This document shows positions 25,301 to 47,126 of a stretch of 64,000 bases of DNA, in pieces. This stretch comes from Planctomycetota bacterium. GTDB lineage: Bacteria > Planctomycetota > UBA1135 > GCA-002686595. The stretch covers positions 37,115 through 101,114 of the forward strand of contig JACKHS010000012.1 of assembly GCA_020638875.1 (NCBI GenBank), in the 5' to 3' direction. Every line of letters starts with the position of its first letter. Position 1 is the stretch's first letter. Both the position numbers and the translations under genes were made by a program. Under the pieces are notes generated by a model. It ran no database searches. It saw nothing but the letters and a program-made list of their open reading frames with translations, and was not told where the DNA came from.

Positions 25301-25486
25301 GTGTCGTGCCTCCCGCTCGCGTGAGGTCGAGCGCCGACGCCCCGAGCACATCAAGAGATGTTCGTCCGATTAAGCGGCTTGCGCGCTGGCCCGGGCGTAC
25401 GCTGCAAGTCTGGCTGGTAGGAGCCAGCGGCTGCTCCAGCCTCCCAGCCTCGATCCAATCGGTATTCATCGAGGAGGAGACACGTG

Positions 25487-28400
25487 ATGAGATCCGACAC
25501 GCGCAGAGTCGGGCTCCGCCTATCGCTCGTTCTTGGAGCGTTGGGCCTGACTCTCTCGGCGGGCAGCGCGACCGCGCAGTCCCGGGTGTATTTCGATGCG
25601 ACCTCGAAGGACGCGCAGCGCGCCGCCGCCGGCGCTCTCGAGCGCGACTACCTGGTCGACGTCGGCCCGCGCCTGATCGCACCCGACCGGAACACGAGCG
25701 TCGACCTGTCCAAGGGGACGGCCGACGTCTACCTGCAGTTCGAGCGCTCGCTCTCGCTCCGAGAGCGCGGCGCCTACCAGCTCGAAGGCGTGGTCTTCCA
25801 GCAGGCCATGCGAGGCCACACCTACCGCGCGATGCTGACGCGCCAAGCGGCGCCGCGGCTCCGCGCCGACCCGCTCTTCCGGGGCATCGAACCCGTCCTC
25901 CCCGTCGACAGGCTCTCGCGAGGCCTGTGGGAGGACAGCGTCTCGCCGAACGTGCGGCACGCCGACGGCTCCGTCGACGCCTTCGTGCGCTTCCATCCGC
26001 GCGTGACCCTTCGGCGCGCGCAGGCCCTGCTCGAAGAGTGGGGCGTCCGCTACCAGCAGACCGACTCCTTCCTGCTGGGGCACCGCCTCGAGGTCGACGT
26101 CACGCACGGACAGGCGCTCGTGCTCGCCGAGAGCGACCTCGTCGTGCGGCTCTACGAGTCGGGTCCGCCCAAGGGCGCCGACAACGCGAACGCCGCGATC
26201 CTCTCCCACGTCGACCTCGTGCAGGCTCCGCCCTACAACCTGAGCGGTGCGGGCGAGATCCTCGGCATCTGGGACATAGGCGACGTGCGCACCGATCACG
26301 AGCAGCTCACCGGCCGCGTGGTCCTGCACGACTTCTCGGGCGTGAACGACCACTCGACCCACGTGGCCGGCACGCTGATCGGAGACGGCACGGGCAACGG
26401 TGCCGCCAAGGGCATGGCCCCCGGCGCGGCCCAGCTGCACTCCTACGACTTCCAGGGCGACACGGCCAACGAGATGCTGCTGTCGTGGTTCAACGACGTG
26501 ATCCAGTACGCGAACCACTCGTGGGGTCACGTCATCGGCTGGGACCAGGGCATCGACATGGGCTTCTCCAGCTGGTTCGGGCTGTACGAGTCCACGGCGG
26601 AGGACTGGGACGACCTGGTCCGCATGACCGACCTGCTCGTTCAGAAGTCGTCCGGCAACGACGGCAACGACTGCAACGCGAGCGGCACCCTGTGTGACGG
26701 CGTCGCGGGCGCGGATGGGTTCCGCTACCACACGATCCCCAGCTTCGGCGTCGCGAAGAACGTCATCACGGTCGGCGCCGTGAACGCCGCCGCGATCCTG
26801 ACGGGCTTCTCCTCGACCGGGCCCACCGACGACAACCGCATCAAGCCCGACGTCGTGGCGAAGGGCGACTTCACCACCTCGGCCTGGGCACAGGGCGCGA
26901 CGATCTCGGGTCCGTGCGACGGCCTCGACTACTGCGGGATCGGCGGCACGTCGATGTCCACGCCCGTCGTCACGGGTGGCATCGCCCTGATCACGGAGCA
27001 GTACCGCGACGTCTACAGCAACTACAACCCGCCGGCGGACCTGATCAAGGCGGTGGTGGTCAACACCGCCATCGACGAGGGCCGCTTCGGACCGGACTAC
27101 GCCTACGGGCACGGCCTCTTCAACGCGCTGGCCGCGGTGGACACCGTGCAGGTCGGCCCTTCGCGCATCCTGCGCGACACGATCGACTCCGGCCACACGA
27201 AGCGCTACACGCTGCTGGTCCCGGAGAACCTGCCCATGCTGCGGGTGACCGGGGCCTGGACGGACTATCCGGGCCTGCCGAACTCGTCCGACCCGGACCT
27301 GGTGAACGACCTGGACTTCAAGCTGATCGACCACAACGGGAACGTGTACTGGCCGTTCTCCGGGCCGACGGGCCTGCCCACCGATCCGGCGACGAACACC
27401 GGCCCCAACACGGTGGACAACGTCGAGGCGTTCATGGTGCCCGGCCCGCCCTCGGGCGTCTGGACCGTCGAGGTCAAGGCCACGTCGACGCCGTTCAGCC
27501 CGCAGGACTTCGCGCTGGTGTGCAACGCGCCGCTGTGGCTCGACACGATCCCCGACATCGAGGTCGTCGACCGCATGATCTTCGACTACACCTGCCCGGC
27601 CGGCGCCGCGGTGCCCGAGGAGCAGGACCTGACGATCTTCAACCTCGGCGGCGGCAACCTGAACGTCGACAACGTCTTCGTGTTCGGCGTCGGCGCGGAC
27701 TTCCAGCTCGCCAGCGAGCCCTCGCCGCCCTTCGTGCTGGTGCCCGGTGGACACGTGGACCTCGTCGTGAGGTTCGTCCCGGACACCATCGGCATGAAGC
27801 TGGCGACGCTCAACATCTTCACCAACGACCCCGACGAGCCGGTCCGGGTCGTGGAGCTCAGCGGCCTCGCGGCTGCGCCGCTCCTGACAGTCACGCTCGA
27901 GGGCAAGGGCGAGTTCGGCAACGTGCTGCTCGGGGAGCGCGAACTCCGCGAGCTGCAGGTCGTGAACCACGGCCTGTGTGACCTCGTACTGAACGATCTC
28001 CAGCGCCTCTCCGGCAGCGCGGCCTTCTCGGTCGGCGAGCTCCCGGGTCACCCGGACTTCCCGATCACGCTCTTCCCCGGGGAGCACCTGCTGATCCCCT
28101 TCGAGTACGCGCCGACGGACTTCGGTCCGGCCTTCGCGCAGATGCAGCTCACGAGCAACGACCTCAAGACGCCGTCGCTCGTCTTCCCGCTGCACGGCAC
28201 CTGCCCGCCGCCTGTCCTGACGATCTCCGGCGACCTCGCGTTCGGCGATGTCTGCGCCGACGGCGGCGCCGAGCGGACGATCCAGGTCTGCAACACGGGC
28301 GCGAGCGACCTGATCGTGATCGACGCGAGCCTGAGCTCGGGTTGCACGGACTTCGAGATCGTCGGCGACCCGTTCCCCGCAGCGGTCAGCCACGACTTCT

Positions 28401-29230
28401 GCGTGCCGCTGACCGTGCGCTTCACGCCGACCGGCGCGGGCCTGCACGCCTGCACGCTGACGATCCAGACGAACGACCCGTTGCGGCCGGAGGTCGCCGT
28501 CCACCTCACCGGCACCGCCAAGCCGGTGTCGGTCGACGTGCCGGCCGAGGTGGGCTTCCCGCCCACGGTGATCCAGGAGCTGAGCGACTGCCGGTCGTAC
28601 ATGCCCTACCCGATCACCAACAACGGCGATTGCCCGGTCACCATCTCCGACGTCTACCTCGTGCAGACCGGCACGGACTACTCGTTCGTGAACCTGCCCG
28701 GGCTGCCGGTCACGCTGCTGCCCGGCGAGACGCTCGGCGACGGCCAGCTCCAAATCTGCTTCGCGCCGACCTTCGTGTTCCGCCACATCGCGGCCGAGGC
28801 GGAGGTGAAGTGGATCTCGAACGACCCGTTGGTCGGCGACGAGGACACCTTCACCACCAAGCTCTGCGGTGAGGGCGTTCGCACCGGCCTGCGGATCCTC
28901 GTGAAGGAGAACGGTGTCCCCGTTCCTCTGGTGCAGAAGATCGACCTCTTCTACGTGGTCAACGTGGACACGCCGGAGGAGTCGCTCGGCACCGTCAGCA
29001 TCGACCGCTTCGTCCACCTCGTGGACGTGCCGGACCACGCTCCGTGTCCCGCCTTCCAGTACCACCGCGAGTGGGGCGGCGAGACCGATCCGACCGCGCT
29101 GGCTCCCGGCACCTACCGGGTGTGGGTGCGGTACATCGCCTCCGACGGGCTCGAGCACTCCACCGCGGTGGACTTCGTGTTCGGGCTGTGCGACTTCGAG
29201 GGTGACTACGTGATCCACTTCGACATCTGA
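25487..29230 (+). CDS. large secreted S8 subtilase with double pro-region, P-like domain, multiple choice-of-anchor-D/ASH-type Ig repeats and a distinctive C-terminal domain (paralog 1)
   Basis: SD gaggaggag lies upstream. The start is ATG 25487 or GTG 25484. Signal peptide ..LSAGSATAQS. Catalytic motifs are GIWDIGD (Asp), NDHSTHVAGT (His), SSGNDGN (Asn) and GGTSMSTPVVTG (Ser). Repeated blocks such as LTIFNLGGGNLNV..FVLVPGGHVDLVVRF.P...G...ATLNIFTNDPDEP are typical of choice-of-anchor D domains. Confidence 0.85.
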   Translation: MRSDTRRVGLRLSLVLGALGLTLSAGSATAQSRVYFDATSKDAQRAAAGALERDYLVDVGPRLIAPDRNTSVDLSKGTADVYLQFERSLSLRERGAYQLEGVVFQQAMRGHTYRAMLTRQAAPRLRADPLFRGIEPVLPVDRLSRGLWEDSVSPNVRHADGSVDAFVRFHPRVTLRRAQALLEEWGVRYQQTDSFLLGHRLEVDVTHGQALVLAESDLVVRLYESGPPKGADNANAAILSHVDLVQAPPYNLSGAGEILGIWDIGDVRTDHEQLTGRVVLHDFSGVNDHSTHVAGTLIGDGTGNGAAKGMAPGAAQLHSYDFQGDTANEMLLSWFNDVIQYANHSWGHVIGWDQGIDMGFSSWFGLYESTAEDWDDLVRMTDLLVQKSSGNDGNDCNASGTLCDGVAGADGFRYHTIPSFGVAKNVITVGAVNAAAILTGFSSTGPTDDNRIKPDVVAKGDFTTSAWAQGATISGPCDGLDYCGIGGTSMSTPVVTGGIALITEQYRDVYSNYNPPADLIKAVVVNTAIDEGRFGPDYAYGHGLFNALAAVDTVQVGPSRILRDTIDSGHTKRYTLLVPENLPMLRVTGAWTDYPGLPNSSDPDLVNDLDFKLIDHNGNVYWPFSGPTGLPTDPATNTGPNTVDNVEAFMVPGPPSGVWTVEVKATSTPFSPQDFALVCNAPLWLDTIPDIEVVDRMIFDYTCPAGAAVPEEQDLTIFNLGGGNLNVDNVFVFGVGADFQLASEPSPPFVLVPGGHVDLVVRFVPDTIGMKLATLNIFTNDPDEPVRVVELSGLAAAPLLTVTLEGKGEFGNVLLGERELRELQVVNHGLCDLVLNDLQRLSGSAAFSVGELPGHPDFPITLFPGEHLLIPFEYAPTDFGPAFAQMQLTSNDLKTPSLVFPLHGTCPPPVLTISGDLAFGDVCADGGAERTIQVCNTGASDLIVIDASLSSGCTDFEIVGDPFPAAVSHDFCVPLTVRFTPTGAGLHACTLTIQTNDPLRPEVAVHLTGTAKPVSVDVPAEVGFPPTVIQELSDCRSYMPYPITNNGDCPVTISDVYLVQTGTDYSFVNLPGLPVTLLPGETLGDGQLQICFAPTFVFRHIAAEAEVKWISNDPLVGDEDTFTTKLCGEGVRTGLRILVKENGVPVPLVQKIDLFYVVNVDTPEESLGTVSIDRFVHLVDVPDHAPCPAFQYHREWGGETDPTALAPGTYRVWVRYIASDGLEHSTAVDFVFGLCDFEGDYVIHFDI

Positions 29231-29776
29231 ACCGGGTGGGGCGGACCTCTGCCCGGAGGCCCCCCCACCCTCGACCCGTAGCGAGCCGAACGAGGAGGTG
29301 CAGGCGCGGGGCGGCGACGCCCACGCGCACGAGCCCGGTCTCTTCAGGAACGCGCGCGCCTGTCACCGCGACTCGGTGGCTGGCAGTGCTGCGCGACTCC
29401 TGGCGACGCAGGCGACCCCGAACGGGTCGTCGAGGACGCCGGGAGCCGCGAACGGCGGGTCGCGCCCCTCTCGCGGGGCGCGGCCCGCCGCGCGTTTGCC
29501 GGGAGACGAGCGGTCCTGCTGCCACGGAATTGCGATTCGCTCGTCGGCCCTCGCGCGCGCTTCGCGGCTCTCCCGAAGCCCACTCCCCGCGGCCTCGACG
29601 AGCCCGCGCAGCGATTGCGAGTTCCTAGTCCCGGCTCCAAGACGGACCGATCAAGTCCGTTGAACGACCCCACCGGGATGGGCAATTCTCCCTACGCTGG
29701 AGCCGTGGGCCGGCGCTCGCCAGGGGGGCGGCGCGCCGGAGCTCGACCCATCTTCATTCATCCAGGAGGAGACCTG

Positions 29777-32700
29777 ATGAGATCCCATACCCAACGCCTC
29801 GGCCGCGCCGGGGCGCTCGTCGCTGGAGTTCTGTCCCTGTATCTCGTGGCCGGCACCGCCGCGGCCCAGACCGAGTCCTACTTCGACCCCGAGGCCAAGG
29901 CGCTGCAACGCGCCTCGGTCGACGCGATCACGCGGGACTACCTGGTCGACGTCGGTCCGCGCCTGATCGCGCCCTCGCGCGACACGGACGTCGACATGAG
30001 CCGCGGCTCGGCCGACGTCTACGTGCAGTTCGAGCGCGCGCTCTCGGCGCACGAGCGCAAGGCCTACCAGCTCGAGGGCGTGGTCTTCGAGCGCGCCATG
30101 CGCGGCCACACGTACCGCGCGCTCGTGCCGCGCCAGGCCATGCGGCGCCTGACGCTCGATCCGCTGTTCCGCGGCATCGAGCCGGTGCTGACCGTCGACC
30201 GCCTGTCCTTCGGCCTGTGGGCCGACGAAGTGGACGCGCGGCACGCGGACGGCTCCGTCGACGCCTTCGCCCGCTTCCACCCGAGCGTCTCGCTCGAGCG
30301 CGCGCACGCGCTGCTCGACCGCTGGGGGGTGCGCTACGACCACGACGCCGACTTCCTGTTCGGCAAGCGCGTCGCGGTCAACGTGACGCACGGCCAGGCG
30401 CTCGTGCTCGCCGAGGACCCGAGCATCGTGCGCGTGTTCGAGCTGCCGCCTCCGCCGAAGGAGGACAACGTGGTCGCCGCGGCCCTGTCGAACATCGACG
30501 ACGTGCAAGCGGCACCCTACAACCTCGACGGCGCGGGTGAGATCGTCGGCATCTGGGACGGCGGCGACGTGCGTCCCGACCACGAGCAGCTCACCGGGCG
30601 CGTGTTCCTGCACGACGGTGCGGGCAACAACGACCACTCGACCCACGTCGCCGGCACGATGATCGGCGACGGCACCGGCAACCCGGCGGCCCTGGGGATG
30701 GCGCCCGGTGTCGCGGAGCTGCACTCGTACGACTTCAACGGCGACCCCACCACCGAGATGCTCGGCGCGTGGTTCAGCTTCGCCATCCAGTACGCGAACC
30801 ACTCGTGGGGCAGCGTGCTCGGCTGGGACCAAGGTTCCGACACCGGCAACGCCGGTGAGTTCGGCAACTACAACTCCACGGCCGAGGACTGGGACGACCT
30901 GGTCCAGGTGACCCAACTGCTCGTGCAGAAGTCGGCCGGCAACGACGGCAACGACTGCGACGCCGGCGGCACGAACTGCGACGGCGTGGCCGGGGCCGAC
31001 GGGTACCGCTACGACACGATCGGCACGCAGGGCAACGCGAAGAACATCATCACGGTCGGCGCCGTCAACGGCACCCCGGTCCTGACCGGCTTCTCCTCCT
31101 GCGGCCCGACCGACGACAAGCGCATCAAGCCGGACATCGTGGCCAAGGGCGACTCGCTGATCTCGGCGTGGGCGCAAGGCGTGACCCTCAACAGCTGCGG
31201 TCTCGGCACCGACTACTGCGCGATCGGCGGCACGTCGATGTCCACGCCGACGACGACGGGCGGCATCGTGCTGATCACCGACCAGTACCGCGACATCTAC
31301 TCACAAGCCAACCCGCGCCCCGACGTGATCAAGGCGCTGGTGGTCAACACCGCGCGTGACCAAGGCCGCTTCGGCCCCGACTACGCCTACGGTCACGGTC
31401 TGCTCGACGTGCAGGCGGCGGTCGACGTGGTGCAAGTGGGCCCGTCGCGCATCCTGACCGACGAGCTCGAGACCGGCTTCACGAAGAGCTACCTGATGCT
31501 CGTCCGCGACGGCCAGCCGCAACTGCGCGTGACCGCCGCCTGGACCGACGAGCCCGGCGTCGCGGACTCCAGCGACCCGGACCTCGTCAACAACCTCGAC
31601 TTCAAGCTGATCGCGCCCAACGGCGCGGTGTTCTGGCCGTTCTCGGGTCCCACGGGCCTGCCCACGGATCCGGCGACCGCCACCGCCGCCAACACGGTCG
31701 ACAACGTCGAGGCGTTCATCGTGAACAACCCGCAGACCGGCGTGTGGACGATCCAAGGCAAGGGCCAGTCGGTGCCGTTCGGCCCGCAGGCGTTCGCCTT
31801 GGTGTGCAACTCGCCGCTCTGGCTCGACACCATCCCCGACATCGAGGTGGTGAACGAGATCACGTTCGACCACGCGTGCACGAACCAAGGTGACGTGCCG
31901 CAGGAGAAGACGCTGTCGATCTTCAACCTCGGCGGCGGCAACCTGCACATCAACGACGTGCAACTGACCGCGGGCTCTCCGCAGTTCGAGCTGCTCGACC
32001 GTCCGTCCCCGCCGTTCGTGCTGGTCCCCGGCGCGCACATCGAGCTGATCGTGAAGTTCACGCCGACGCTCGCGGGCATCCACACGGGCACGATCGAGAT
32101 CTCGAGCAACGACCCCGACGAAGGCCTGCGCACCGTCGAGCTCTCCGGCCTCGCGGCCGTGCCGCTCATGACCGTCACGCTCGAGGGCAAGGGCGAGTTC
32201 GGCGACATCCAGCTCGGACACCGCGAGAACCGCGAGCTGCAGGTCGTCAACCACGGCCTGTGCAACCTCGTGCTGATCGACCTGCAGCAGCTGTCCGGCA
32301 GCAGCGAGTTCTCCGTGGGCGGGATCCCCGGGCACCCGGGCTTCCCGATCACGCTGTTCCCGGGCGAGCACATCATGATCCCGTTCGAGTACGCGCCGAC
32401 CGACTTCGGCCCGGACTTCGCGCAGATGCAGCTCTCGACGAACGACACCAAGAAGCCGGTGTTGATCTTCCCGCTGCACGGCGAGTGCTCGCCGCCGATC
32501 CTCACGACCTCCGGCGACTTCCACTTCGGTGAGGTCTGCCCGGACGAGCAGCCCGAGCGCACGATGCAGATCTGCAACACGGGCTGGAGCGACCTCGAGG
32601 TGACCGACGCGAGCATCGAGTTCGGTTGCACGGACTTCGAGATCGTCGGCAACCCGTTCCCCGCGACGGTCAGCCACGACTTCTGCATGCCGCTGACGGT

Positions 32701-33514
32701 GCGCTACACGCCCACCGGTGTCGGCACGCACGTCTGCACGCTGACGATCCAGACGAACGATCCGCTGCGCCCGCAGCTCATCGTCAACCTCGTCGGCACC
32801 ACCAAGCCGGTGTCGGTCGACGTGCCGGCCGAGGTGGGCTTCCCGCCCACGGTGATCCAGTCGGTGAGCGACTGCCGCTCCTACATGCCGTACCCGATCA
32901 CCAACAACGGCGACTGCCCGGTGACGATCACCGAGGTCAACCTGGTGCAGACCGGCACGGACTACTCGTTCGTGAACCTGCCCGGGCTGCCGGTCACGCT
33001 GCTGCCCGGCGAGACGCTCGGCGACGGCCAGCTCCAGATCTGCTTCGCGCCGACCTTCGTGTTCCGCCACATCGCGGCCGAGGCGGAGGTGAAGTGGATC
33101 TCGAACGATCCGCTGATGGGCGACGAGGACACCTTCACCACCAAGCTCTGCGGTGAGGGCGTTCGCACCGGCCTGCGCATCCTCGTGAAGGAGAACGGAG
33201 TGCCCGTGGCGCAGGTCCACAAGATCGACCTGTTCTACGTGGTCAACCCGGGCACCGCCCAGGAGTCGCTCGGCACCGTCACCGCCCAGCGCTTCGTGAA
33301 CCTGGTCGACGTCCCGGAGCACGCGCCGTGCCCGGCCTTCCAGTTCCACCGCGAGTGGGGCGGGGAGACCGACCCGACCGGGCTGACCCCCGGCACCTAC
33401 CGCGTCTGGGTCCGCATCCAGGGCTCCGACGGCCTCGAGCACTCCATCGCGGTGGACTTCGTGCTCGGGCTCTGCGACTTCGAGGGTGACTACGTGATCG
33501 ACTTCAATATCTGA
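29777..33514 (+). CDS. large secreted S8 subtilase, tandem paralog 2 of 25487..29230
   Basis: SD aggagga lies 6 nt before the ATG at 29777 (MRSHTQRLG..). The first 54 codons of track ORF 29615.. are discounted. The architecture and catalytic motifs match paralog 1 (GIWDGGD, NDHSTHVAGT, SAGNDGN, GGTSMSTPTTTG). The two are collinear, with a 4284-4290 nt offset. Confidence 0.85.
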   Translation: MRSHTQRLGRAGALVAGVLSLYLVAGTAAAQTESYFDPEAKALQRASVDAITRDYLVDVGPRLIAPSRDTDVDMSRGSADVYVQFERALSAHERKAYQLEGVVFERAMRGHTYRALVPRQAMRRLTLDPLFRGIEPVLTVDRLSFGLWADEVDARHADGSVDAFARFHPSVSLERAHALLDRWGVRYDHDADFLFGKRVAVNVTHGQALVLAEDPSIVRVFELPPPPKEDNVVAAALSNIDDVQAAPYNLDGAGEIVGIWDGGDVRPDHEQLTGRVFLHDGAGNNDHSTHVAGTMIGDGTGNPAALGMAPGVAELHSYDFNGDPTTEMLGAWFSFAIQYANHSWGSVLGWDQGSDTGNAGEFGNYNSTAEDWDDLVQVTQLLVQKSAGNDGNDCDAGGTNCDGVAGADGYRYDTIGTQGNAKNIITVGAVNGTPVLTGFSSCGPTDDKRIKPDIVAKGDSLISAWAQGVTLNSCGLGTDYCAIGGTSMSTPTTTGGIVLITDQYRDIYSQANPRPDVIKALVVNTARDQGRFGPDYAYGHGLLDVQAAVDVVQVGPSRILTDELETGFTKSYLMLVRDGQPQLRVTAAWTDEPGVADSSDPDLVNNLDFKLIAPNGAVFWPFSGPTGLPTDPATATAANTVDNVEAFIVNNPQTGVWTIQGKGQSVPFGPQAFALVCNSPLWLDTIPDIEVVNEITFDHACTNQGDVPQEKTLSIFNLGGGNLHINDVQLTAGSPQFELLDRPSPPFVLVPGAHIELIVKFTPTLAGIHTGTIEISSNDPDEGLRTVELSGLAAVPLMTVTLEGKGEFGDIQLGHRENRELQVVNHGLCNLVLIDLQQLSGSSEFSVGGIPGHPGFPITLFPGEHIMIPFEYAPTDFGPDFAQMQLSTNDTKKPVLIFPLHGECSPPILTTSGDFHFGEVCPDEQPERTMQICNTGWSDLEVTDASIEFGCTDFEIVGNPFPATVSHDFCMPLTVRYTPTGVGTHVCTLTIQTNDPLRPQLIVNLVGTTKPVSVDVPAEVGFPPTVIQSVSDCRSYMPYPITNNGDCPVTITEVNLVQTGTDYSFVNLPGLPVTLLPGETLGDGQLQICFAPTFVFRHIAAEAEVKWISNDPLMGDEDTFTTKLCGEGVRTGLRILVKENGVPVAQVHKIDLFYVVNPGTAQESLGTVTAQRFVNLVDVPEHAPCPAFQFHREWGGETDPTGLTPGTYRVWVRIQGSDGLEHSIAVDFVLGLCDFEGDYVIDFNI

Positions 33515-33910: not shown

Positions 33911-36900
33911 TCAGGGCACGGTCAGCAGCACCTCGGCCCCGGCCCCGCCCGTCTGGCGCGTCTCGACCAGCCGCGGCGGCTGCCCGGGCTCGGCCGCGAA
34001 GACGCGGAAGGTGCGCCGGGCGCAGACCGGCCGGAGCAGCTCGAAGCGCCCCTCCGCGTCGGTCTGGCTCAGGCCCTGGTCCTGGCCGAGCAGGAACTCC
34101 CCCCCCGCCACGGGCGTCACGCACTCCACGGACACGGTCGCCTCGGCCAGCGGGGTGCCGTCGGCGCGCCGGACGGAGCCGTACACCCGCTCGGTCGCGA
34201 GCGCGCGCGAGCGCGTCAGGGCCAGCTCGAGCCAGCCGGCCTCCCCGGGCGCGGCCCGCGGCCGGAAGCGCAGCCCGGCGTAGTCCGAGTCGAACTCGTA
34301 CCAGCGGTTGCGCTCGGGGTTCTGGTGGAAGCTGAGCAGGTGCGAGCAGTCCGCGAGCCCGGTCAGCTCGAAGCGACCGGCCTCGTCGGTCACGACCGAG
34401 GCGATGACGTCGGGCTGGTCGCCACCCGTCTCGGGATCGGCGAAGACGCGCACGCCCGCGAGCGGCGCCCCGCCGGCGTCGCTGAGGCGTCCCGCGTAGC
34501 GCTCGCCGCCCTGCGCGAGGTGCAGCTCGCAGCCGTCGGGCGCGTCCTTGGGGATCGGCACCATGTAGGTGCGACGGTCGGGGCCCGCGAACTCGAGGAC
34601 CCAGTGATCGCTGGCGAGGTCGAGCGGGACGCGCCCGCTCGGCTCCACCGCGACCCAGCTCATGCCCTGGTAGCGCGCGCGCCAGGCGCTCGGGTCGCCG
34701 CCGTCGGGCGTCACGAGGCGCGCGTACCGCGGCCCGGTCGAGGCCGGCAGCGCCACGGTCACCTCGCGCTCCTCGCCGCGCGCGAGCGGCACCTCGACCA
34801 TGTCGTCGAAGGTGTAGGTCGCGCCGACGACCGCCTCGGGCACGAGCACGCGGAACGTCCCCGGCGCCAGGCCCGCGAAGGCGAGCGCCCCCGCGGCGTC
34901 CGTCCCGCCGTGCTGCTGCTGGCCGTGCTCGTCGTGCAGCACGACCACGCGCCCGCCGGCCGGGCGGCCCTCGCCGTCGACGACGACGACGGTGATGCCG
35001 CCCATGTGCTCGACGTCGACCTCGACGGGCTCGGGGTGCGGCAGGTCGATCGGCTCGTGGTACAGGCGCGCGCCGTCGCGCACGCGCAGCACGTACGCGC
35101 CCGGCGGCGCGCTCAGGGCGAAGTCGCCGTGCTCGTCCACGCGCACACCGTCGACGAGCGCGTCGTCGGTCTCGCCCCACATCAGGCGGCTGCGCGCGAG
35201 CAGTGCCGCCGTCGCCCCCTCCCCCGGGCGTCCGTCGCGCAGCACGCGCCCCGCGAGCCGCGGCGTCGCGCCGCGCCGCAGGCGCACCTCGAGCTCACCC
35301 TGGTGCACGAGGTCGACGACCTGCAGCGAAGTGCCCTCGTAGCCCTCCGCCCAGACGGTGAGCCTCATGGTCTTGTCCGAGTTGTAGCGCAGGAACACCG
35401 CTTCGCCGGGCACGGCCAGGCGACCGCCCGGTGCCTCGAAGGCGCCGCCCCACAGCACGTACCCGTTGGCGAGCTCGCGGCCGAGCAAGCGCACGCGCTC
35501 GATCGGCGCCCCGTCCGCGTCGTCGACGACGTGCAGGTACGGCTGCCGCTCCAGGTAGAGGGCGACCTCCTCCCCGACCGGGTAGCTCATGGACATCGAG
35601 AACCCCCACCCCGCGTCGAGGACGTCCACCGAGACCGTGTCGGCGGCGACCTCGACCGCGAAGCTGCCGTCGGCGGCGGTGGTGGTCGTCCAGGTGCCGA
35701 GCCCCTCGATGTCCTCGGCGGTGTGCACGACCTTGCCGTCCTCCGGCCAGACCTGCACGTCGGGCACGCGGCACGCGGAGAAGGCGAGGCGCACGGGCTC
35801 GGCCGGCGGCTCGAGCGTCGTCGCGATGTAGACGCGGCCGCGCATCACGCGCGTGCGCCAGAGGGCGAGGGTGACCTCCTCGCCCGCGGCCGGCGCGCCG
35901 CGGTACCGCGCGCCGTAGCCCGCGAGCACGACCTCGAGCAACGCGCCGTCCTCGAACGCGGGCAGCGTGAAGCCCCCCTGCGCGTCGGTCGTGGTCTCGG
36001 CGAGCGGCGCGGCGTCCGGCGCCGGCAGGTCGAAGACCGTCAGCGCCTCGGCGCCGAAGCGCGAGGCGTCGTCGAGGCCCTCGACGCGCGGCCAGTCGCC
36101 GCCCGTGCGCCCGCGCGCGCCGCCGTTCGCCTCCTGCTCGTAGAGCGCCGGGTGCGCGCGCAGCGCGGCCGGCAGGGTGGCGCGCGTCGGCGCGAAGAGC
36201 CGCACGCGCGCCCCGGCGAGCGGCGCGCCGTCGGCGGCGTCGAGCACGCGCCCGGTGCCGGTCTCCGCGCCCGCGCGCGCGGCGGCGTCGGCGACGAGCT
36301 CGGCGCGCTCCGGCCGGCTCCGCGCGACGGCGAGCGCTGCGTCGCGCGGCGCCTCCTGCGCACGCGGCGGCGCGACCACGGGCTCCGCCGGGCGAACCGG
36401 CGCTTCGAGGCTCGGCTGCGCGAGGTAGCGCAGGCCGAGCACGGTGAGGACCACCGCGCAGGCGGCGACGAGCAAGACCTTCTGACTCACGATCCAAGCT
36501 CCCAGGGCTGAGGTCACGGCGGTCGCGGCCGCCGTCGCGGCGGCCTCGTCCAGCACGACGTCCCGGACGGCGGCGAGCCCGCGCGGTGCTCCGAGCAGCA
36601 GCGCGAGGCCGCCGACCAGCGAGGCGGGCAGGGCACGGCGCAGGAGCTCGTGCCCGCGGTGCAACTGCACGCGCACGGTGCCCGGGCTGCGCCCGAGCGC
36701 GTGCGCGATCTCCGCCGGCGCCAGACCGTGGCGCAGGCGCAGCACCACGACCGCGCGGTAGGGCTCTTCCAGCCCGTCCACCGCCGCGGCCAGCTCCGCG
36801 GAGAGCTCGCGTCGCTCGAGCGGCGCGTCGGGCGCCTCCTCCTCCGCGCGCTGCAGGCGCTCGGGGTCGAGAGGTCGCGCCGCGCGCCGCCGCGCGTCCG

Positions 36901-37147
36901 CCGCCTTGTGAGTCAGGACGCCGATCAGCCAGGGCATCGCCGGCCGCGACCCGTCGAGCGCGCGGCCCTGCTCGAGCAGCGCGAGGAAGGTCTGCTGGAC
37001 GAGGTCCTCCGCCTCGCAGGCGTCGCCCACGAGGTGCACGGCGGCGCGCAGCAGCTTGGGCGCGGTGAGGTCGAACAGCTCGCCCACCGCCTCCACGTCG
37101 CGCCGCGCGCACCAGCGCGCGAAGAGCTCGTCCGTTCGCGATCCCAT
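33911..37147 (-). CDS. ECF sigma factor fused to a transmembrane helix and large carboxypeptidase-regulatory-like repeat ectodomain
   Basis: A single 1078-codon ORF. The N-terminal ~172 aa form an ECF sigma (DLVQQTFLALLEQ; YRAVVVLRLRHGLAPAEIAHALGRSPGTVRVQLHRG). The hydrophobic helix is KVLLVAACAVVLTVLGL. About 835 aa follow, with repeats such as GRVLDAADGAPLAGARVRLF, ITVVVVDGEGRPAGGRVVV, YAGRLSDAGGAPLAGVRVFA and VYGSVRRADGTPLAEATVSV. Confidence 0.75.
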   Translation of the reverse strand: MGSRTDELFARWCARRDVEAVGELFDLTAPKLLRAAVHLVGDACEAEDLVQQTFLALLEQGRALDGSRPAMPWLIGVLTHKAADARRRAARPLDPERLQRAEEEAPDAPLERRELSAELAAAVDGLEEPYRAVVVLRLRHGLAPAEIAHALGRSPGTVRVQLHRGHELLRRALPASLVGGLALLLGAPRGLAAVRDVVLDEAAATAAATAVTSALGAWIVSQKVLLVAACAVVLTVLGLRYLAQPSLEAPVRPAEPVVAPPRAQEAPRDAALAVARSRPERAELVADAAARAGAETGTGRVLDAADGAPLAGARVRLFAPTRATLPAALRAHPALYEQEANGGARGRTGGDWPRVEGLDDASRFGAEALTVFDLPAPDAAPLAETTTDAQGGFTLPAFEDGALLEVVLAGYGARYRGAPAAGEEVTLALWRTRVMRGRVYIATTLEPPAEPVRLAFSACRVPDVQVWPEDGKVVHTAEDIEGLGTWTTTTAADGSFAVEVAADTVSVDVLDAGWGFSMSMSYPVGEEVALYLERQPYLHVVDDADGAPIERVRLLGRELANGYVLWGGAFEAPGGRLAVPGEAVFLRYNSDKTMRLTVWAEGYEGTSLQVVDLVHQGELEVRLRRGATPRLAGRVLRDGRPGEGATAALLARSRLMWGETDDALVDGVRVDEHGDFALSAPPGAYVLRVRDGARLYHEPIDLPHPEPVEVDVEHMGGITVVVVDGEGRPAGGRVVVLHDEHGQQQHGGTDAAGALAFAGLAPGTFRVLVPEAVVGATYTFDDMVEVPLARGEEREVTVALPASTGPRYARLVTPDGGDPSAWRARYQGMSWVAVEPSGRVPLDLASDHWVLEFAGPDRRTYMVPIPKDAPDGCELHLAQGGERYAGRLSDAGGAPLAGVRVFADPETGGDQPDVIASVVTDEAGRFELTGLADCSHLLSFHQNPERNRWYEFDSDYAGLRFRPRAAPGEAGWLELALTRSRALATERVYGSVRRADGTPLAEATVSVECVTPVAGGEFLLGQDQGLSQTDAEGRFELLRPVCARRTFRVFAAEPGQPPRLVETRQTGGAGAEVLLTVP

Positions 37148-37214
37148 GGCGCTCCAGGCTCGCAGGGCGCCGCCGGGCGTTACGGGGATTCGCGGAAAAG
37201 CCGCCGCGCGCCGC

Positions 37215-40905: not shown

Positions 40906-41937
40906 TCAGGTCCTCGTCGTCGCGACGATGATGCGGGCGGGGTCCTCCCCCGCCGAGAGGGTGTGAGCTCCGAAGGCGGCCGGCACGAGACACGTGTCGC
41001 CGGTGGCGAGCTCCGTGCTCGCCGCGCCTCCCGGGCGTTCGATGCGGACATGCCCCTCGACCACGACGTAGACGAGCGGGCGGTCCTCGGTGTGCGCCTG
41101 CACGTGCCCCTCGACCTCGAGCACCGAGAGCGCGAACGCGGGGCGGCGCACGACGTCGCGCGCGCTGCGGCCTCCGGGCACGGACACGAGCGCGGGCGCG
41201 AAGGGGCCGGTGATCGGCGTCGCGTAGTCGATCGCGAGCAGCGCCTGCTCGACGTGCATCGCGCGCGGCTTGCCGTCGAGCCCCAGGCGCCCCCAGTCGT
41301 AGAGGCGATAGGTCAGGTCGCTCGACTGCTGCACCTCGAGCAGCGTCACGCCGGCACCGATCGCGTGCAGCGTGCCGGCCGGCACGTCGATCACGTCCCC
41401 GGCGCGCACGCGCCACGGCTGCAACGCGTCGACGACGCCCTCGCCGCCGGCCACCGCGGCGAACGCGCTCGCGTCGACGTCGGAGCGCAGCCCGAGGTAG
41501 ACGAGCGCGCCCGGCTCGGCGTCGAGCACGTACCAGGCCTCGTCCTTGCCGCTGTCGCCGGCGTGCAGGCGCTTGGCCGTCGCGTCGTCGGGGTGCACCT
41601 GCACCGAGAGCGGCTGCGAGGCGGAGAGGTACTTCACGAGCAGCGGGAAGCGGTCGTCCTCGGTCAGGCCGGCGGCGCCCATCAGCTCGGCGCGGTGGTC
41701 GCGCACCAGCTCGTGCAGCTTGCGGCCCTGGTGCTCGCCGCCGCGCACGCGCGAGACGTGCTCGGCGCGATCGGAGAGCTCCCAGGTCTCGCCCACCGGC
41801 CCCTCCACGTCCAGCGCGAGGCCCGGCACCTGCTCGAGCCGGCGGCCGCCCCAGACCTTCGTCAGGCAGACGCGCTCGAACCGCAGCGGCTCGTCGAGCG
41901 GACGCGGAGCGTTCGTGCGGGGGTCGGGAGGCGCCAT
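40906..41937 (-). CDS. manA: class I mannose-6-phosphate isomerase
   Basis: Start ATG at 41937 (MAPPDPRTN..). VWGG, FPLLVKYLSASQPLSVQVHPDD, KDEAWYVL and VPAGTLHAIGAG are the PMI type I zinc-ligand motifs. Confidence 0.85.
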   Translation of the reverse strand: MAPPDPRTNAPRPLDEPLRFERVCLTKVWGGRRLEQVPGLALDVEGPVGETWELSDRAEHVSRVRGGEHQGRKLHELVRDHRAELMGAAGLTEDDRFPLLVKYLSASQPLSVQVHPDDATAKRLHAGDSGKDEAWYVLDAEPGALVYLGLRSDVDASAFAAVAGGEGVVDALQPWRVRAGDVIDVPAGTLHAIGAGVTLLEVQQSSDLTYRLYDWGRLGLDGKPRAMHVEQALLAIDYATPITGPFAPALVSVPGGRSARDVVRRPAFALSVLEVEGHVQAHTEDRPLVYVVVEGHVRIERPGGAASTELATGDTCLVPAAFGAHTLSAGEDPARIIVATTRT

Positions 41938-42148
41938 GGCGGGCGAACAGGGTAGCGTCTGCGCGCCGAGGCAGCGGCGAAAAGGCCGCGGCCACGGGCC
42001 TTCCACGCGGCGCGTCGCGCGAGCGCGTCGGCTCCCGAGCGCGCCCTCTTGGAAAGCGCGGGACGGTGCACCAATCAACCGGCGGGTTGCGGGAACCTCG
42101 CTCGGGGACCTCCCCATCCAAGCTCTCGGGTCGACCCGACCCCTCTCG

Positions 42149-44056
42149 ATGCGCGCCCCCTCTCCTGCTCCTCCGCTCGGACCCCGCCCGTCCGCGACGC
42201 TCGCCCCCGTCGGACTGGCCCTGCTCGCCTCGGTGGCCTCGCTGCTGTTCGCGGCGTTCACGCTGTATCCGCGCGGCGAAGCTACCAGCCTGCAATCGGG
42301 CGTCGTGCACGCGGCCGAGTCCGAGGCGTCGCGCCGCACCGCGCTGGCCGAGCCGGCGCCGGCCGCCGCCCAGGGACAGACGCGCGTGGCGGAGTTCGTC
42401 AGCGCGCCGACCGAGCTCGCCGCGCCCGAGCTCCTGCGCCTCGCCTGCCGCGTGGTCGACGAGGACGACCTGCCCGTGGCCGGCGCGGAGGTGTGGGCCG
42501 ACGACGGCGAGTACGCGCTGCGCGGGCTGAGCGATGCCGACGGGACCTTCGCGCTCGAGCTCGACGCCGCGACGCTGCGCGCGCGCTGGCGCCGCGGCGA
42601 CGTGGTGCGCGTCGGCGCGCGTCACGCGGACCACGGCCCGTCGCTGCTCTCCGCGTGGGCCGCGCCGCGCGACGCCGAGCTCGTGCTGCGCCTGCACGGC
42701 GCGGGCGCGCGCCTGTGGCTGCAGGTGGTCGACCCCGCGGGCATGCCGGTGCCCGGCGCGCAAGTGCGCGTCGAGCCGGACACGGAGCTCGACGCGCCGG
42801 CGCTGGCCCCCGACGGCGGCGCCGTGGCGATCACGACGAGCCCGCTGGCGATCAGCGACGCGTGGGGCGAGGTGCGCCTCTCCGGCCTGGAGCCGGGCCC
42901 GACGCGCGCGGAGCTGTGGGCACCCGGCTACTGCCCGCGCACGTCGCGCGTGAAGCTGCTCGAGGGCGTGCGCCTGACGCTGCGCGTGCGCCTCGACCAC
43001 GCGGCCGCGCTGCACGGCAAGCTGCGGCGCATCGACGGCGGCGACGTGGGCGGCGCGCGCGTGACGGCCTTCGACGAGGACGGGCGCACGCGCCACGAGA
43101 CGCGCGCGGGGAGCGACGGCAGCTACGAGCTGCGCGACGTCCCGGCCGGTCGCGTGCGCGTGTTCGCCGAGCTCGGCGCGGAGGGTCGCGTGACGCACTC
43201 GGCCGCGAACGACCTCTACCTGCGCGCCGGCGAGCGTGGCGAGTGGAACGCGGTGCTCGCGCTGGTGCCGTTGACGCAGCGCCGCCTGCTGGACTCGGAC
43301 GGCCGGCCGTTGATCGGGTGGCGCGTCGAGCTGCGCGCCAAGGACGCGGCCGACGAGGCGCTGCACGTCGCGCGCACCGACGAGGACGGCCGCTACGAGC
43401 TGCCCGCGGTGCGCGACGGGCGCGAGACCCAGCTCTGGATCTACCACGCGCTCGCGGGCGGCGGCTTGCCCACGCGCGTGCAGGACGACGACGGGAGCGG
43501 CGACGGCGAGCTGCGCCTCGCGCCGGGCGAGGATCGCGCGGCGACGCTGCGCGGCCGCGTCCGCACGCAGCAAGGCCGACCCGCGCTGGGCGTGCCGTGC
43601 TCGGTGGTGCGCCTCGCGACGGGGCAGACGCTGCCGCTCGTGACGAGCCTCGACGACGCGGCCTTCGAGACGCCGCCGCTGCCGCCGGGTGACTACGTGC
43701 TGCTCTTCCCCAACCACGGCCGCGGTTGGATCCCGGACCAGCGCTTCACGTTGCTGCCCGACGAGCCGCTCGACATCGGTTCGGTGCGGCTGCCCGACCT
43801 CGGGCGCCTGCGCCTCGCGCCCGCGGTGCTGACGCGCAGCGGCGAGTGTCGCGACGTGCGACTCGTGCTGCACCGCCCCGAGATCGAGCCGGACTACAAG
43901 TACGTCGTGCACGAGGGACGCGTGGACCTGCCGCTCGAGGTCGACCTCGCGCCGGGCGAGTACGCGGTGCGCGCCCTCGACGTGCCCGGCTCGCCGCGCT
44001 TCGACTTCGTCATCACCAGCGGCGCGACGACGCCCGTGGTGATGCCCGCGGAGTAG
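42149..44056 (+). CDS. single-pass membrane protein with carboxypeptidase-regulatory-like repeats
   Basis: The ATG at 42149 (MRAPSPAPP..) is chosen within track ORF 41546..44056. Anchor LAPVGLALLASVASLLFAAFTLY. Repeats include CRVVDEDDLPVAGAEVWA, LQVVDPAGMPVPGAQVRV, GKLRRIDGGDVGGARVTAFDEDG...SDGSYELRDVPAG and LRGRVRTQQGRP. Confidence 0.65.
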   Translation: MRAPSPAPPLGPRPSATLAPVGLALLASVASLLFAAFTLYPRGEATSLQSGVVHAAESEASRRTALAEPAPAAAQGQTRVAEFVSAPTELAAPELLRLACRVVDEDDLPVAGAEVWADDGEYALRGLSDADGTFALELDAATLRARWRRGDVVRVGARHADHGPSLLSAWAAPRDAELVLRLHGAGARLWLQVVDPAGMPVPGAQVRVEPDTELDAPALAPDGGAVAITTSPLAISDAWGEVRLSGLEPGPTRAELWAPGYCPRTSRVKLLEGVRLTLRVRLDHAAALHGKLRRIDGGDVGGARVTAFDEDGRTRHETRAGSDGSYELRDVPAGRVRVFAELGAEGRVTHSAANDLYLRAGERGEWNAVLALVPLTQRRLLDSDGRPLIGWRVELRAKDAADEALHVARTDEDGRYELPAVRDGRETQLWIYHALAGGGLPTRVQDDDGSGDGELRLAPGEDRAATLRGRVRTQQGRPALGVPCSVVRLATGQTLPLVTSLDDAAFETPPLPPGDYVLLFPNHGRGWIPDQRFTLLPDEPLDIGSVRLPDLGRLRLAPAVLTRSGECRDVRLVLHRPEIEPDYKYVVHEGRVDLPLEVDLAPGEYAVRALDVPGSPRFDFVITSGATTPVVMPAE

Positions 44057-44185
44057 CCCGACGCCGGTCCGCTTGCGACCCCGGGGTCCGCTGCTAGGCT
44101 GACGCGCGTCGGCGCCCGCCCCGAGCGCGCGCCGCACGTCCACCCCGCTCTGTCCGTGGCGCTACGTGCCCACAGGAGACAACGC

Positions 44186-44914
44186 ATGACCCGGCCCATC
44201 TCGATGAAGCGACGCCTGCTCGGCGGCTTCGCTGCGATCGCTCTGCTGAGCACCCTCGGCCTGACGCTCGCCAACAGCGGCGCCGCGACCGGCCAGGAGA
44301 AGATCAACCACTACATCGGCGCCGGGAAGTGCATGAACTGCCACCAGGCCGATGCCTCCGGCAACCAGTACGCGAAGTGGCAGGACTCCAAGCACTCGCA
44401 CGCCTTCGAGGTGCTCGGTACGGACGAGGCCAAGCGCGTCGGGAAGGAGCTGGGGATCGAGGATCCGCAGAAGAGCGAGAAGTGCGTGCGCTGCCACTCG
44501 ACCGGCTTCGGGCTCTCCGAGGACCACTTCAAGAAGGGCTTCGACGCGCAGGCCGGCGTGCAGTGCGAGACCTGCCACGGCCCCGGTGAGGATCACATGC
44601 GCGCGCGCTTCCGCGCCGCCGCGATGGAGGAGGAGCGCCCGGAAGGCGAGGTGGCGCCCTACATGAAGGTCCCGGAGGGCGAGATCATCGTCACGCCCGC
44701 GAAGGAGGTCTGCTACGGCTGCCACAACGAGCAGAGCCCGAGCTTCAAGAACTTCTGCTACTACGAGCGCATCGACAAGATCCGTCACCTCGACCCGCGC
44801 AAGCCGCGCACGGACGCCGAGAAGGCCGCGCTGCTCGTCTGCGGTTGCGGCGACGGCTGCACGTGCAAGCACGAGTGCGCCGAGGGCTGCGGCGTCCCGC
44901 CGAAGAAGGAGTAG
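44186..44914 (+). CDS. secreted tetrahaem c-type cytochrome (c554-like) with Cys-rich C-terminal tail
   Basis: SD caggaga lies before the ATG at 44186. Signal peptide ..LTLANSGAATG. The four CXXCH motifs are CMNCH, CVRCH, CETCH and CYGCH. The tail is CGCGDGCTCKHECAEGC. Confidence 0.85.
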   Translation: MTRPISMKRRLLGGFAAIALLSTLGLTLANSGAATGQEKINHYIGAGKCMNCHQADASGNQYAKWQDSKHSHAFEVLGTDEAKRVGKELGIEDPQKSEKCVRCHSTGFGLSEDHFKKGFDAQAGVQCETCHGPGEDHMRARFRAAAMEEERPEGEVAPYMKVPEGEIIVTPAKEVCYGCHNEQSPSFKNFCYYERIDKIRHLDPRKPRTDAEKAALLVCGCGDGCTCKHECAEGCGVPPKKE

Positions 44915-44937
44915 CCCCGACTCCTCCAGCGAATGCC

Positions 44938-44978
44938 GCGGGGGCGGAGGTCCGCTGACCTCCGCCCCCGCCGTTTCG
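44938..44978. terminator. hairpin between convergent cytochrome and NrfD-like genes
   Basis: gcgggggcggaggt-ccgctg-acctccgcccccgc is a perfect 14-bp stem followed by cgtttcg on the plus strand. Confidence 0.65.
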
Positions 44979-44989
44979 ACTCGCCGCGC

Positions 44990-46225: not shown

Positions 46226-46241
46226 CTGAGTGCGCTCCGGG

Positions 46242-47126
46242 TCAGACGCCGTAGAAGTAGAAGAACCGAGGGTGGGTCTCGAGCTCCGTCTTCAGGACGA
46301 AGATGCGCTTGGACCGGAGCACCTCGCGGATCTCGCTGAGCGGGTCGAGCAGGTTGCCGAACTTGCGCGCGCCCACCGGGCAGACCTCGACACACGCGGG
46401 GTAGAGCCCCTCGCGCGTGCGCTGGATGCAGAACGTGCACTTCTCGACGACGCCCTTGTGGCGCGGCCGGTTGCCGAGCAGGTGCGTCTTCGGGTTGATG
46501 TCCTCGGCGGGGATCTCCGGCTCGGCCCAGTTGAAATGGCGCGCGCCGTAGGGACACGACGAGACGCAGCAGCGGCAGCCGATGCACCAGTCGTAGTCGA
46601 TGACGACGATGCCGTCCGGCTCCTTCCACGTGGCGTTCACGGGGCAGGACTTGACGCAGGGCGGGTCGGCACAGTGCTGACAGGCCACCGGCAGGTAGAA
46701 GTGCCCGTCGCGCGGCACCTTCTCGGCCTCGTAGTACGCGTTCGCGTGCGCGAAGTCGATGCCGCGCGCCTTGTCCATCTCGAGCACGCGGATCCACTGG
46801 ACCTCGGGATCACGACTCTGGTTGTTCTCCTCGACGCACGCGTGCACGCAGCGGCGGCACCCGATGCACCGCGAGATGTCGAGGGCGTAGGCGAACTGCA
46901 CGCCTTCGCGCGGTCCTTGCGTGCCGACCTCGATGTCGACGCCGTACTGGTCCTTGTAGTCAGCTTCGAGGTCCGCGACGAGTTGCTCGATCTGCTTCTC
47001 GTCGAGCTCGTGCAGGTGGTCTCGGAAGAAGGGCGTGTGCGTAGGCTCGCTGCAGCTCGCAGCGGCGGCGCATCCAGCGACGGCGCACATGAAGTCACGG
47101 CGCGAGATCGTCATACATCCGCTCAT
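46242..47126 (-). CDS. Tat-signal 4x[4Fe-4S] ferredoxin-type subunit (NrfC/PsrB/HybA-like, module 2)
   Basis: The ATG at 47126 (MSGCMTISRRDFMCAVAGC) overlaps the cytochrome stop (ATGA). Cluster motifs are CIGCRRCVHAC, CQHCADPPCVKSCP, CIGCRCCVSSCP and CTFC..PACVEVCP. Confidence 0.85.
   Translation of the reverse strand: MSGCMTISRRDFMCAVAGCAAAASCSEPTHTPFFRDHLHELDEKQIEQLVADLEADYKDQYGVDIEVGTQGPREGVQFAYALDISRCIGCRRCVHACVEENNQSRDPEVQWIRVLEMDKARGIDFAHANAYYEAEKVPRDGHFYLPVACQHCADPPCVKSCPVNATWKEPDGIVVIDYDWCIGCRCCVSSCPYGARHFNWAEPEIPAEDINPKTHLLGNRPRHKGVVEKCTFCIQRTREGLYPACVEVCPVGARKFGNLLDPLSEIREVLRSKRIFVLKTELETHPRFFYFYGV

Follow-up and report, generated by a model that had tools for sequence, protein, structure and literature searches.

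A conserved, apparently undescribed family of ECF sigma factors fused through a membrane helix to a CarboxypepD_reg ectodomain, found mainly in Planctomycetota

Can an extracytoplasmic function (ECF) sigma factor, a membrane helix and a large ectodomain be parts of one polypeptide, and how might such a sigma factor be switched? The question is raised by a gene at 33911..37147(-) in a 64,000-nucleotide stretch of a Planctomycetota contig (JACKHS010000012.1; the whole stretch analysed is hereafter the window), for which a preliminary description had claimed a single uninterrupted open reading frame (ORF) of 1078 codons. The ORF starts with ATG, the first in-frame one after a stop, and runs on continuously for 1078 codons. 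Given that the G+C content of the window is about 75% and that long ORFs are present in all frames, codon-position composition was checked as well: G+C at third positions (GC3) was 0.92-1.00 in each 100-codon block from start to stop, with GC3 > GC1 > GC2. This uniformity indicates that the coding frame is the same on both sides of the junction between sigma region 4 and the membrane helix, without a frame break, and the ORF was thus borne out. Its product is identical to NCBI MCB9915559.1, which is labelled ‘sigma-70 family RNA polymerase sigma factor [Planctomycetota bacterium]’ and derives from a 115-kb contig of a metagenome-assembled genome (MAG). We found that it represents a conserved, mainly planctomycetal family of proteins composed of a sigma domain, a linker with an RGL motif, a transmembrane helix and a CarboxypepD_reg array, a family of which we found no description.

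The N-terminal part looks like a functional ECF sigma domain. Pfam placed Sigma70_r2 at residues 25-91 (36875..37075(-); 38.8 bits, cut-off 24) and Sigma70_r4_2 at residues 118-165 (38.0 bits, cut-off 25.7), the latter within a region 4 of residues 118-172 (36632..36796(-)) that comprises the helix-turn-helix and its recognition helix, TVRVQLHR. The general ECF model of NCBIfam, TIGR02937 sigma70-ECF, scored 68.8 bits against a cut-off of 42.9; none of the curated NCBIfam ECF subfamilies attained its own cut-off, and no Pfam family for sigma region 1 or region 3 matched the protein. The top sequence matches in the PDB were ECF sigma factors (SigE and SigL of M. tuberculosis and SigW of B. subtilis), with alignments ending at residue 175 and no PDB sequence match beyond it. 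AlphaFold2 predicted sigma helices across residues 4-172, with a predicted local distance difference test score (pLDDT) above 90 for both sigma2 and sigma4, and the best Foldseek matches of the N-terminal model were all ECF sigma factors. Conservation within the whole protein is highest in regions 2.2-2.4 (AEDLVQxTFL, PWLxGVL) and in the recognition helix of region 4.2. By its domain content, the protein is an ECF (group 4) member of the sigma-70 family, with regions 2 and 4 and without regions 1.1 and 3; the sigma assignment made in the preliminary description is backed by profile, sequence and fold matches.

Region 4 is followed by a conserved linker at residues 173-221 (36485..36631(-)), supported by alignments and a linker hidden Markov model (HMM) and predicted to lie on the cytoplasmic side, next to the membrane. 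In the alignments, VRVQLHRG-x-E-x-LR-xx-LPAxLA is followed by about 10 hydrophobic residues, RGLAAV[R/K]xxVL, a variable Ala/Ser/Thr-rich tract, (L)GG-xxxx-KK, the transmembrane helix and a W. The RGLAAVR helix maps to 36563-36583(-), and RGLxx[VI][RK] was found 21-30 residues (mostly 23) past VRVQLHRG in 54 of 59 close homologues; the RGL motif is also present in the distant tier of homologues described below. In a 57-sequence alignment, the majority-residue fraction was 0.64 for the RGL helix, compared with 0.70 for sigma2, 0.76 for sigma4, 0.44 for the ectodomain, 0.37 for the transmembrane helix and 0.26 for the outer spacer, so that the linker is nearly as constrained as the sigma domains. 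The strongest hydrophobic segment peaks at residue 224 (Kyte-Doolittle 2.36, 19-residue window) and is the only one of its kind, found where the preliminary description had placed it; a weaker hydrophobic stretch occurs at residues 175-190. On hydropathy, alignment and model, this segment is predicted to be a single Ala-rich transmembrane helix at residues ~222-241 (36425..36484(-)), with 29% Ala and an Ala-rich tract on its cytoplasmic side.

No zinc-finger or other anti-sigma Pfam family matched between sigma4 and the helix even at E<=1, and neither FecR nor DUF4880 matched the fusion protein at E<=1. Residues 173-221 contain no Cys or His in the window protein, and two or more in only 5 of 57 orthologues. 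Nor does the linker correspond to a four-helix class I anti-sigma domain (~80-90 residues), since it measures ~50 residues and has two predicted helices and no profile match. The earlier statement that an anti-sigma domain is missing therefore holds for known Pfam families and overlooked the conserved linker module, which may do an anti-sigma job. Class II anti-sigma domains (CnrY/NepR type) are short two-helix cytoplasmic segments located just before a membrane helix, in separate proteins that act in trans. The linker is comparable to them in length, with two helices in ~50 residues before the transmembrane segment, whereas no sequence similarity to them was detected and AlphaFold2 leaves the linker undocked on sigma. 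By analogy, it could inhibit sigma in cis, acting as a minimal anti-sigma element of class II size, or be required for activity, like the N-terminal tail of FecR-type regulators; it could also serve as a recognition element for a protease or adaptor. In the full-length model its helices (175-186, and 191 onward, the latter continuous with the transmembrane helix) were predicted with a confidence of only 38-76.

Beyond the helix, an Ala/Pro/Glu-rich spacer at residues 242-291 (36275..36424(-)), predicted to be extracytoplasmic and disordered and poorly conserved, leads to the ectodomain at residues 292-1078 (33914..36274(-)), made up of about 8-9 tandem beta-sandwiches of the CarboxypepD_reg / transthyretin / CnaB-like type. 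Pfam CarboxypepD_reg scored 104 bits over five stretches, above the curated cut-off. The full-length AlphaFold2 model, built from the 57-sequence alignment, had a mean pLDDT of 85.6 and a predicted template modelling score (pTM) of 0.73; residues 239-281 were disordered and residues 292-1078 all-beta, mostly with pLDDT > 90. A Foldseek search of the PDB retrieved tandem transthyretin/CnaB-type beta-sandwich arrays, including the B. anthracis TIE protein, Gram-positive pilins, SdrD B domains and alpha-2-macroglobulin MG domains, and no enzymes, while a sequence search of the PDB with the ectodomain gave zero matches. Invariant positions are nearly all Gly, Phe, Trp or Pro, without conserved residues of a catalytic type, as would be expected for a scaffold or binding module. 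The preliminary description had correctly recognised CarboxypepD_reg beta-sandwiches; its repeat ectodomain of ~835 residues is to be corrected to a folded part of ~787 residues behind a disordered spacer of ~50, and its canonical repeat motif was found, by reading of the sequence, in about six domains only. The C-terminus directly follows the last strand and reads [VLI]P in 33 of 59 orthologues; we considered whether this ending is a sorting or protease signal and concluded that it just marks where the final beta-strand stops. A C-terminal sorting signal was not detected in the fusion protein.

A homologue search identified 57 full-length proteins (1026-1131 amino acids, 28-47% identity, at least 86% coverage), all of which bear Sigma70_r2, Sigma70_r4_2 and CarboxypepD_reg. 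More than 60 further proteins of 800-1200 amino acids, aligning only over the N-terminal ~20%, formed a second tier with the same three Pfam families; these paralogues share the sigma domain, the linker and the transmembrane helix, and their CarboxypepD_reg ectodomains are unalignable. The named sources were nearly all Planctomycetota MAGs, with a few Gemmatimonadota. A linker-only HMM was then run on the six-frame ORFs of the window and 166 loci, a set that includes 178 ORFs with a sigma domain. All 21 matches lay in the same ORF as a sigma domain and directly after it, and the other 157 ECF ORFs had no linker. Searched against 1.84 billion representative proteins (E<=1e-3), a 70-position linker profile matched 323 clusters at 50% identity. 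Among the best 150 clusters, the linker was located at about residues 153-275 in 129, mostly in proteins of ~850-1200 amino acids, the shorter ones appearing truncated. Of the 21 exceptions, 20 were read individually: 19 were fragments starting inside sigma4 or proteins with a start miscalled in its last helix, and one was a spurious repeat protein. The remaining exception, P0029, contains only region-4 Pfam domains and by this content is truncated at its N-terminus.

A split version, with sigma factor and membrane protein encoded separately, was not found among the six-frame ORFs or the best 150 of the 323 linker clusters, which answers the question of whether orthologues keep the fusion: in both searches it was always one gene. 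Judged from these comparisons, the fusion is conserved and obligate across the family, and the proposed one-polypeptide arrangement of sigma domain, helix and large ectodomain stands. The uninterrupted arrangement recurs in more than 100 independent assemblies, and such a number of homologues excludes an assembly artefact. Translation from an internal GTG at V194, suggested previously as an alternative start, is likewise excluded, since this position is I or L in several orthologues. In one related locus (L008, 5989-8937, in MAG201, JBFMCU010000190.1), the orthologue is distributed over at least three consecutive ORFs, with tblastn covering residues 6-1072; it is either a pseudogene or affected by assembly frameshifts.

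A second feature that recurs in the family is a promoter-like motif (37159..37183(-)) in the 67-nt intergenic gap, 11 nt ahead of the ATG. It consists of a -35-like GTAAC (37183-37179(-)), a 16-nt spacer and a -10-like CGAG (37162-37159(-)), is preceded by TTTTCC..GAATCC, and lies in a gap between the upstream M16 peptidase gene and the ATG that reads ...TTTTCCGCGAATCCCCGTAACGcccggcggcgccctgCGAGcctggagcgccATG. ECF promoters have an AAC-containing -35 and a CG-rich -10 element and are often located upstream of the sigma factor's own gene. The sequence ttCCtGTAACG, followed 15-17 nt on by CGAG or CAA(A/C), occurs upstream of 11 orthologue genes (8 loci) and one paralogue. Measured from where the sigma domain begins, GTAAC falls between -77 and -88 in the window gene and in 11 of 12 further carriers; in the twelfth, L166a, it is found at -110. 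In control ECF genes, GTAAC occurred anywhere within 260 nt upstream in 7 of 148; these controls were generic ECFs among 160 listed loci from genome and metagenome scans with sigma-domain patterns, a list with about 15 family members. In the whole window, both strands included, there are five GTAAC pentamers, of which only the one ahead of the fusion gene has CGA at the right distance. The motif is present for each gene in the tandem paralogue loci L165 and L166, and in more distant paralogues its place is taken by GTGAAC, GAAAC, GTCAC or GGAAC. These -35 variants vary roughly in step with the recognition helix of sigma4; a strict covariation of helix and motif, which we considered, is suggestive and is contradicted by the paralogue in L167. 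We regard the motif as a putative ECF-type, probably autoregulated promoter, its recurrence upstream of family genes suggesting autoregulation, and its presence would make the gene independent of read-through from the M16 genes.

How the sigma domain is controlled can be proposed by analogy with known systems. The protein is probably, if by no wide measure, a one-polypeptide transmembrane sigma factor in which an event at the ectodomain or tether triggers regulated intramembrane proteolysis with positive feedback. In this model, a cytoplasmic ECF sigma domain would be connected by the ~50-residue linker and the Ala-rich transmembrane helix to a flexible Ala/Pro-rich tether and a rigid periplasmic array of ~790 residues. 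At rest, sigma would be held inactive, whether through its attachment to the membrane, through a linker folded back onto sigma2/sigma4, or through a combination of the two. The trigger would be an event outside the cytoplasm that affects the ectodomain, such as ligand binding, damage or cleavage, the last most plausibly in the exposed tether, and it would leave a remnant that a site-2 protease can cut within the membrane. Sigma, alone or with the linker still attached, would then be freed, bind core RNA polymerase and transcribe from TGTAACG-N16-CGA promoters, including its own, which would produce the positive feedback. A single Ala-rich transmembrane helix, an Ala-rich tract on its cytoplasmic side and a disordered, variable outer tether are traits expected of a substrate of regulated proteolysis.

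Several observations speak against this model. A second AlphaFold2 model, of residues 1-246 (pLDDT 87.4, pTM 0.53), leaves the linker undocked on the sigma domains, with a linker pLDDT of 64-67. In Foldseek comparisons the modelled sigma2-sigma4 layout fits poorly to known structures, with a root mean square deviation of ~13 A to anti-sigma-bound and ~22 A to holoenzyme forms, and is thus somewhat closer to the former. The window contains no site-2 protease, and no protease is linked to the fusion gene: in a comparison of 10 related loci with gene calls, an M16 gene adjoins it in none and an S8 gene in one (L164). The -10 part of the motif is weak, and a -10 element at CGAG would leave the mRNA with almost no leader. 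In the 64-kb window and eight orthologue loci, no further intergenic GTAAC-N16-CGA site was found, and the L167 paralogue has GGAAC despite an identical TVRVQLHR helix.

The alternative that survives best, although we consider it unlikely, is that sigma works while anchored in the membrane, a conformational signal from ectodomain or linker unmasking sigma2/sigma4 so that RNA polymerase is recruited without cleavage. ToxR and CadC are regulators that act in this anchored state. Such a mechanism would account for the lack of a protease gene conserved beside family genes, and the highly conserved linker, with its predicted helix continuous with the transmembrane helix, would suit signalling of a piston or rotation type below an ectodomain predicted to be rigid (full-length pTM 0.73). 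However, the disordered and unconserved outer tether would be a poor transmitter of conformation, a single-pass protein without an evident dimerisation module would be a weak transducer, and the Ala-rich helix and tract fit proteolytic processing. Moreover, IutY, the only fused sigma/anti-sigma protein studied experimentally, is released by proteolysis (PMC5411451). A more far-reaching idea, to which we give a similarly low and if anything slightly lower probability, is that the linker constitutes a new minimal in-cis module for switching an ECF sigma across the membrane, with sigma either active while tethered or freed by partial degradation. If true, a tethered-active sigma would bring RNA polymerase to the membrane, and the alternative release would be a degradation through the Ala-rich tract limited by a stop signal; either mechanism would be unlike the classical destruction of an anti-sigma factor, and the invariable pairing with beta-sandwiches would point to a common mechanical or protease-sensing signal.

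Dedicated processing by the neighbouring proteases is much less probable. As the preliminary description had reported when it called the context suggestive, a pair of M16 peptidase genes in the same orientation precedes the fusion gene, with a gap of 67 nt, and two S8 subtilase genes are convergent with it. One M16 gene encodes a subunit with HFLEH (an active HxxEH motif) and the other an inactive subunit, and the two subtilases measure ~1250-1300 amino acids. In addition, no terminator-like site was seen between the M16 pair and the fusion gene, and an S8 gene is also located near the orthologue in L164. Against such a link stand the locus comparison given above, in which M16 was absent from all 10 related loci and S8 present in one only, the conserved promoter-like motif of the fusion gene itself within the 67-nt gap, and a third, unrelated S8 gene in the window (61163-63412(+)), subtilases being simply frequent in this genome. 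The neighbours that do recur, namely FG-GAP/ASPIC proteins (4 loci), BlaI-like genes (3 loci) and fusion paralogues (L003, L165, L166 and L169), are too inconsistent for an operon, and the argument from context is therefore unsupported.

Still less probable, by a little, is that the N-terminal domain serves as a PhyR-like protein-interaction module instead of a working sigma factor, the protein being a membrane scaffold or adhesin. Sigma-like domains used solely for protein binding do exist, an ECF41-type sigma encoded elsewhere in the window has a sub-threshold PhyR_sigma-like Pfam match (24.3 bits, cut-off 27), and the ectodomain is similar to the beta-sandwich arrays of pilins and adhesins. 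Nevertheless, the strongest conservation of the whole protein falls on regions 2.2-2.4 and the recognition helix, an ECF-type promoter-like motif with variants loosely tracking that helix is conserved upstream of family genes, and neither a receiver domain nor a component of a partner switch was found. An artefactual fusion, through an assembly frameshift, read-through or two products from an internal start, has a negligible chance: 75% G+C makes long spurious ORFs common and the L008 orthologue is broken into several ORFs, whereas the uniform codon-position G+C over the junction, the more than 100 assemblies, a linker never seen without sigma4 directly upstream and the I or L at V194 all contradict it.

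Membrane-spanning ECF extensions are already known, in IutY/ECF243, ECF48, ECF52, ECF53 and ECF263 (PMC8999054, PMC7826278), and the rarity implied by the preliminary description, in which known extensions were mostly soluble, was overstated. IutY of P. putida (ECF243) is a sigma/anti-sigma hybrid belonging to a cell-surface signalling system and is trimmed by Prc to ~50 periplasmic residues, after which RseP frees the sigma domain (PMC5411451). The window protein resembles it in being one polypeptide with a predicted cytoplasmic ECF sigma domain, a single transmembrane helix and a periplasmic domain, and here, too, there is an exposed tether of ~50 residues. In contrast, a FecR-type anti-sigma domain, a TonB-dependent transducer and a proteobacterial host are features of IutY; the window protein has no match to the former and no TonB-dependent receptor among its window neighbours, and differs in its linker, its ~790-residue beta-sandwich ectodomain and its planctomycetal host.

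SCO4117 of Streptomyces coelicolor (ECF52) comprises sigma, a zinc finger, a transmembrane helix, a Pro-rich region and a carbohydrate module (PMC5826349); excision by an unknown protease and positive autoregulation have been proposed for it (PMC5826349, PMC8999054), and the same mode of action for ECF48 and ECF53, which have an ECF52-like layout (PMC5826349, PMC8999054). With these groups the window protein shares the succession of sigma, short cytoplasmic segment, transmembrane helix, Pro-rich low-complexity spacer and extracytoplasmic domain of a binding type. Unlike ECF52, which carries a zf-HC2/ZAS domain and a carbohydrate-binding module (CBM) and is restricted to Actinobacteria, it has no zf-HC2 match and no Cys or His in its linker; it has the RGLAAVR module and a CarboxypepD_reg array in place of smart00776/CBM, and its family occurs in Planctomycetota and rarely in Gemmatimonadota.

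In Planctomycetota, ECFs with long, variable C-terminal extensions have already been recorded in bulk (PMC7671368, PMC7826278). Among them, ECF57 (formerly ECF01-Gob) has WD40-like repeats and a pair of conserved cysteines that connects sigma2 with sigma4 (PMC8999054), with 5.3 copies per planctomycetal genome (PMC7826278). The fusion family is similar in host phylum, in having several paralogues per genome, some of them in tandem, and in extensions that vary while sigma2 and sigma4 are conserved. It differs from ECF57, as described, in that WD40 gave no Pfam match and the cysteine pair is missing: the one Cys that is commonly conserved is C13 (consensus RWCR), and sigma4 has no conserved Cys. 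Unlike ECF41, the fusion protein has no SnoaL match. The family thus resembles fused membrane-spanning ECFs and, as far as sequences can tell, misses defining features of each named group compared. No description of an ECF sigma fused to CarboxypepD_reg was found in the literature, and the family may already have an ECF Hub group number.

The surroundings of family genes yielded further observations. FG-GAP/VCBS/ASPIC-type genes occur within ~5 kb upstream in 4 of 6 orthologue loci (L001 5098-6696; L002 6462-7823; L003 2557-5496; L164 2173-5640), a proximity that may be due to chance in these genomes or to a weak functional link. Genes for BlaI-like repressors lie within 8 kb of the fusion in three loci, with BlaI/BlaR1-like regions at L002 1876-5777, L001 1362-1760 and L168 7964-10524; in two of them, L002 and L168, the BlaI-like gene is followed by one for a BlaR1-like M56 sensor-protease. 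The L002 M56 protein (1170 amino acids) is itself fused to CarboxypepD_reg repeats, so that two different transmembrane signalling heads seem to use this class of outer domain. Tandem or nearby family paralogues are located at L165 7001-13491, L166 3330-10381, L169 4001-7105 and 8505-11105, and L003 1-325.

Within the window, three stand-alone proteins had been said to share the ectodomain type. Significant matches were obtained for two, at 17470-19815 and in the ORF that ends at 44056, and the third is a sub-threshold CarboxypepD_reg match in a multihaem cytochrome; the stand-alone proteins resemble the ectodomain at the level of domain class only. A specific homology of the ectodomain to the 17470-19815 protein or the L002 M56 fusion was also considered and came down to motif-level matches. 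The plus-strand ORF at 41546-44056 (CarboxypepD_reg, E 6.6e-35) overlaps by ~800 nt with a phosphomannose-isomerase-like gene at 40906-42339(-), and its true start is probably near 42.4 kb. The cytochrome, of 758 amino acids, belongs to a cluster at 44156-55333 with multihaem cytochromes c, two NrfD-type membrane subunits and a molybdopterin oxidoreductase, which looks like a respiratory or extracellular electron-transfer module.

The convergent S8 subtilases at 25484-29230(+) and 29615-33514(+) are tandem paralogues of 1248 and 1299 amino acids with HYDIN/ASH/DUF1573 Ig-like domains, the S8 gene at 61163-63412(+) being smaller. The G+C content of the 24-34 kb region is 0.68-0.70, compared with ~0.75 for the window. 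The ECF41-type gene at 20489-21364(+) carries Sigma70_r2, Sigma70_r4_2 and, as proposed earlier and confirmed by Pfam, a SnoaL_2 C-terminal extension; just upstream, with a one-base overlap, is a 178-amino-acid ORF without a Pfam match (19953-20489(+)). A third ECF sigma gene, of the planctomycete type (Sigma70_ECF, PF07638; 237 amino acids), is located at 7879-8592(-), beside tRNA-Val(CAC) (7692-7767(-)) and upstream of an NAD-dependent DNA ligase gene (8624-10873).

Fused ECF sigma factors that are probably released by proteolysis are an established concept, and our finding therefore extends known biology and does not overturn it. What it adds is a family of at least 323 clusters at 50% identity that has been annotated merely as ‘sigma-70 family RNA polymerase sigma factor’, and in which sensor, transducer and output are packed into one chain without a recognisable anti-sigma domain. 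This design makes the family a compact system in which to ask how a tethered sigma factor is silenced and then activated, and also which signals are sensed by the CarboxypepD_reg arrays that are so abundant in Planctomycetota. For such experiments, and for building orthogonal one-component transmembrane switches, direct handles are provided by the linker, which is short and conserved, and by the promoter predicted to be the cognate one.

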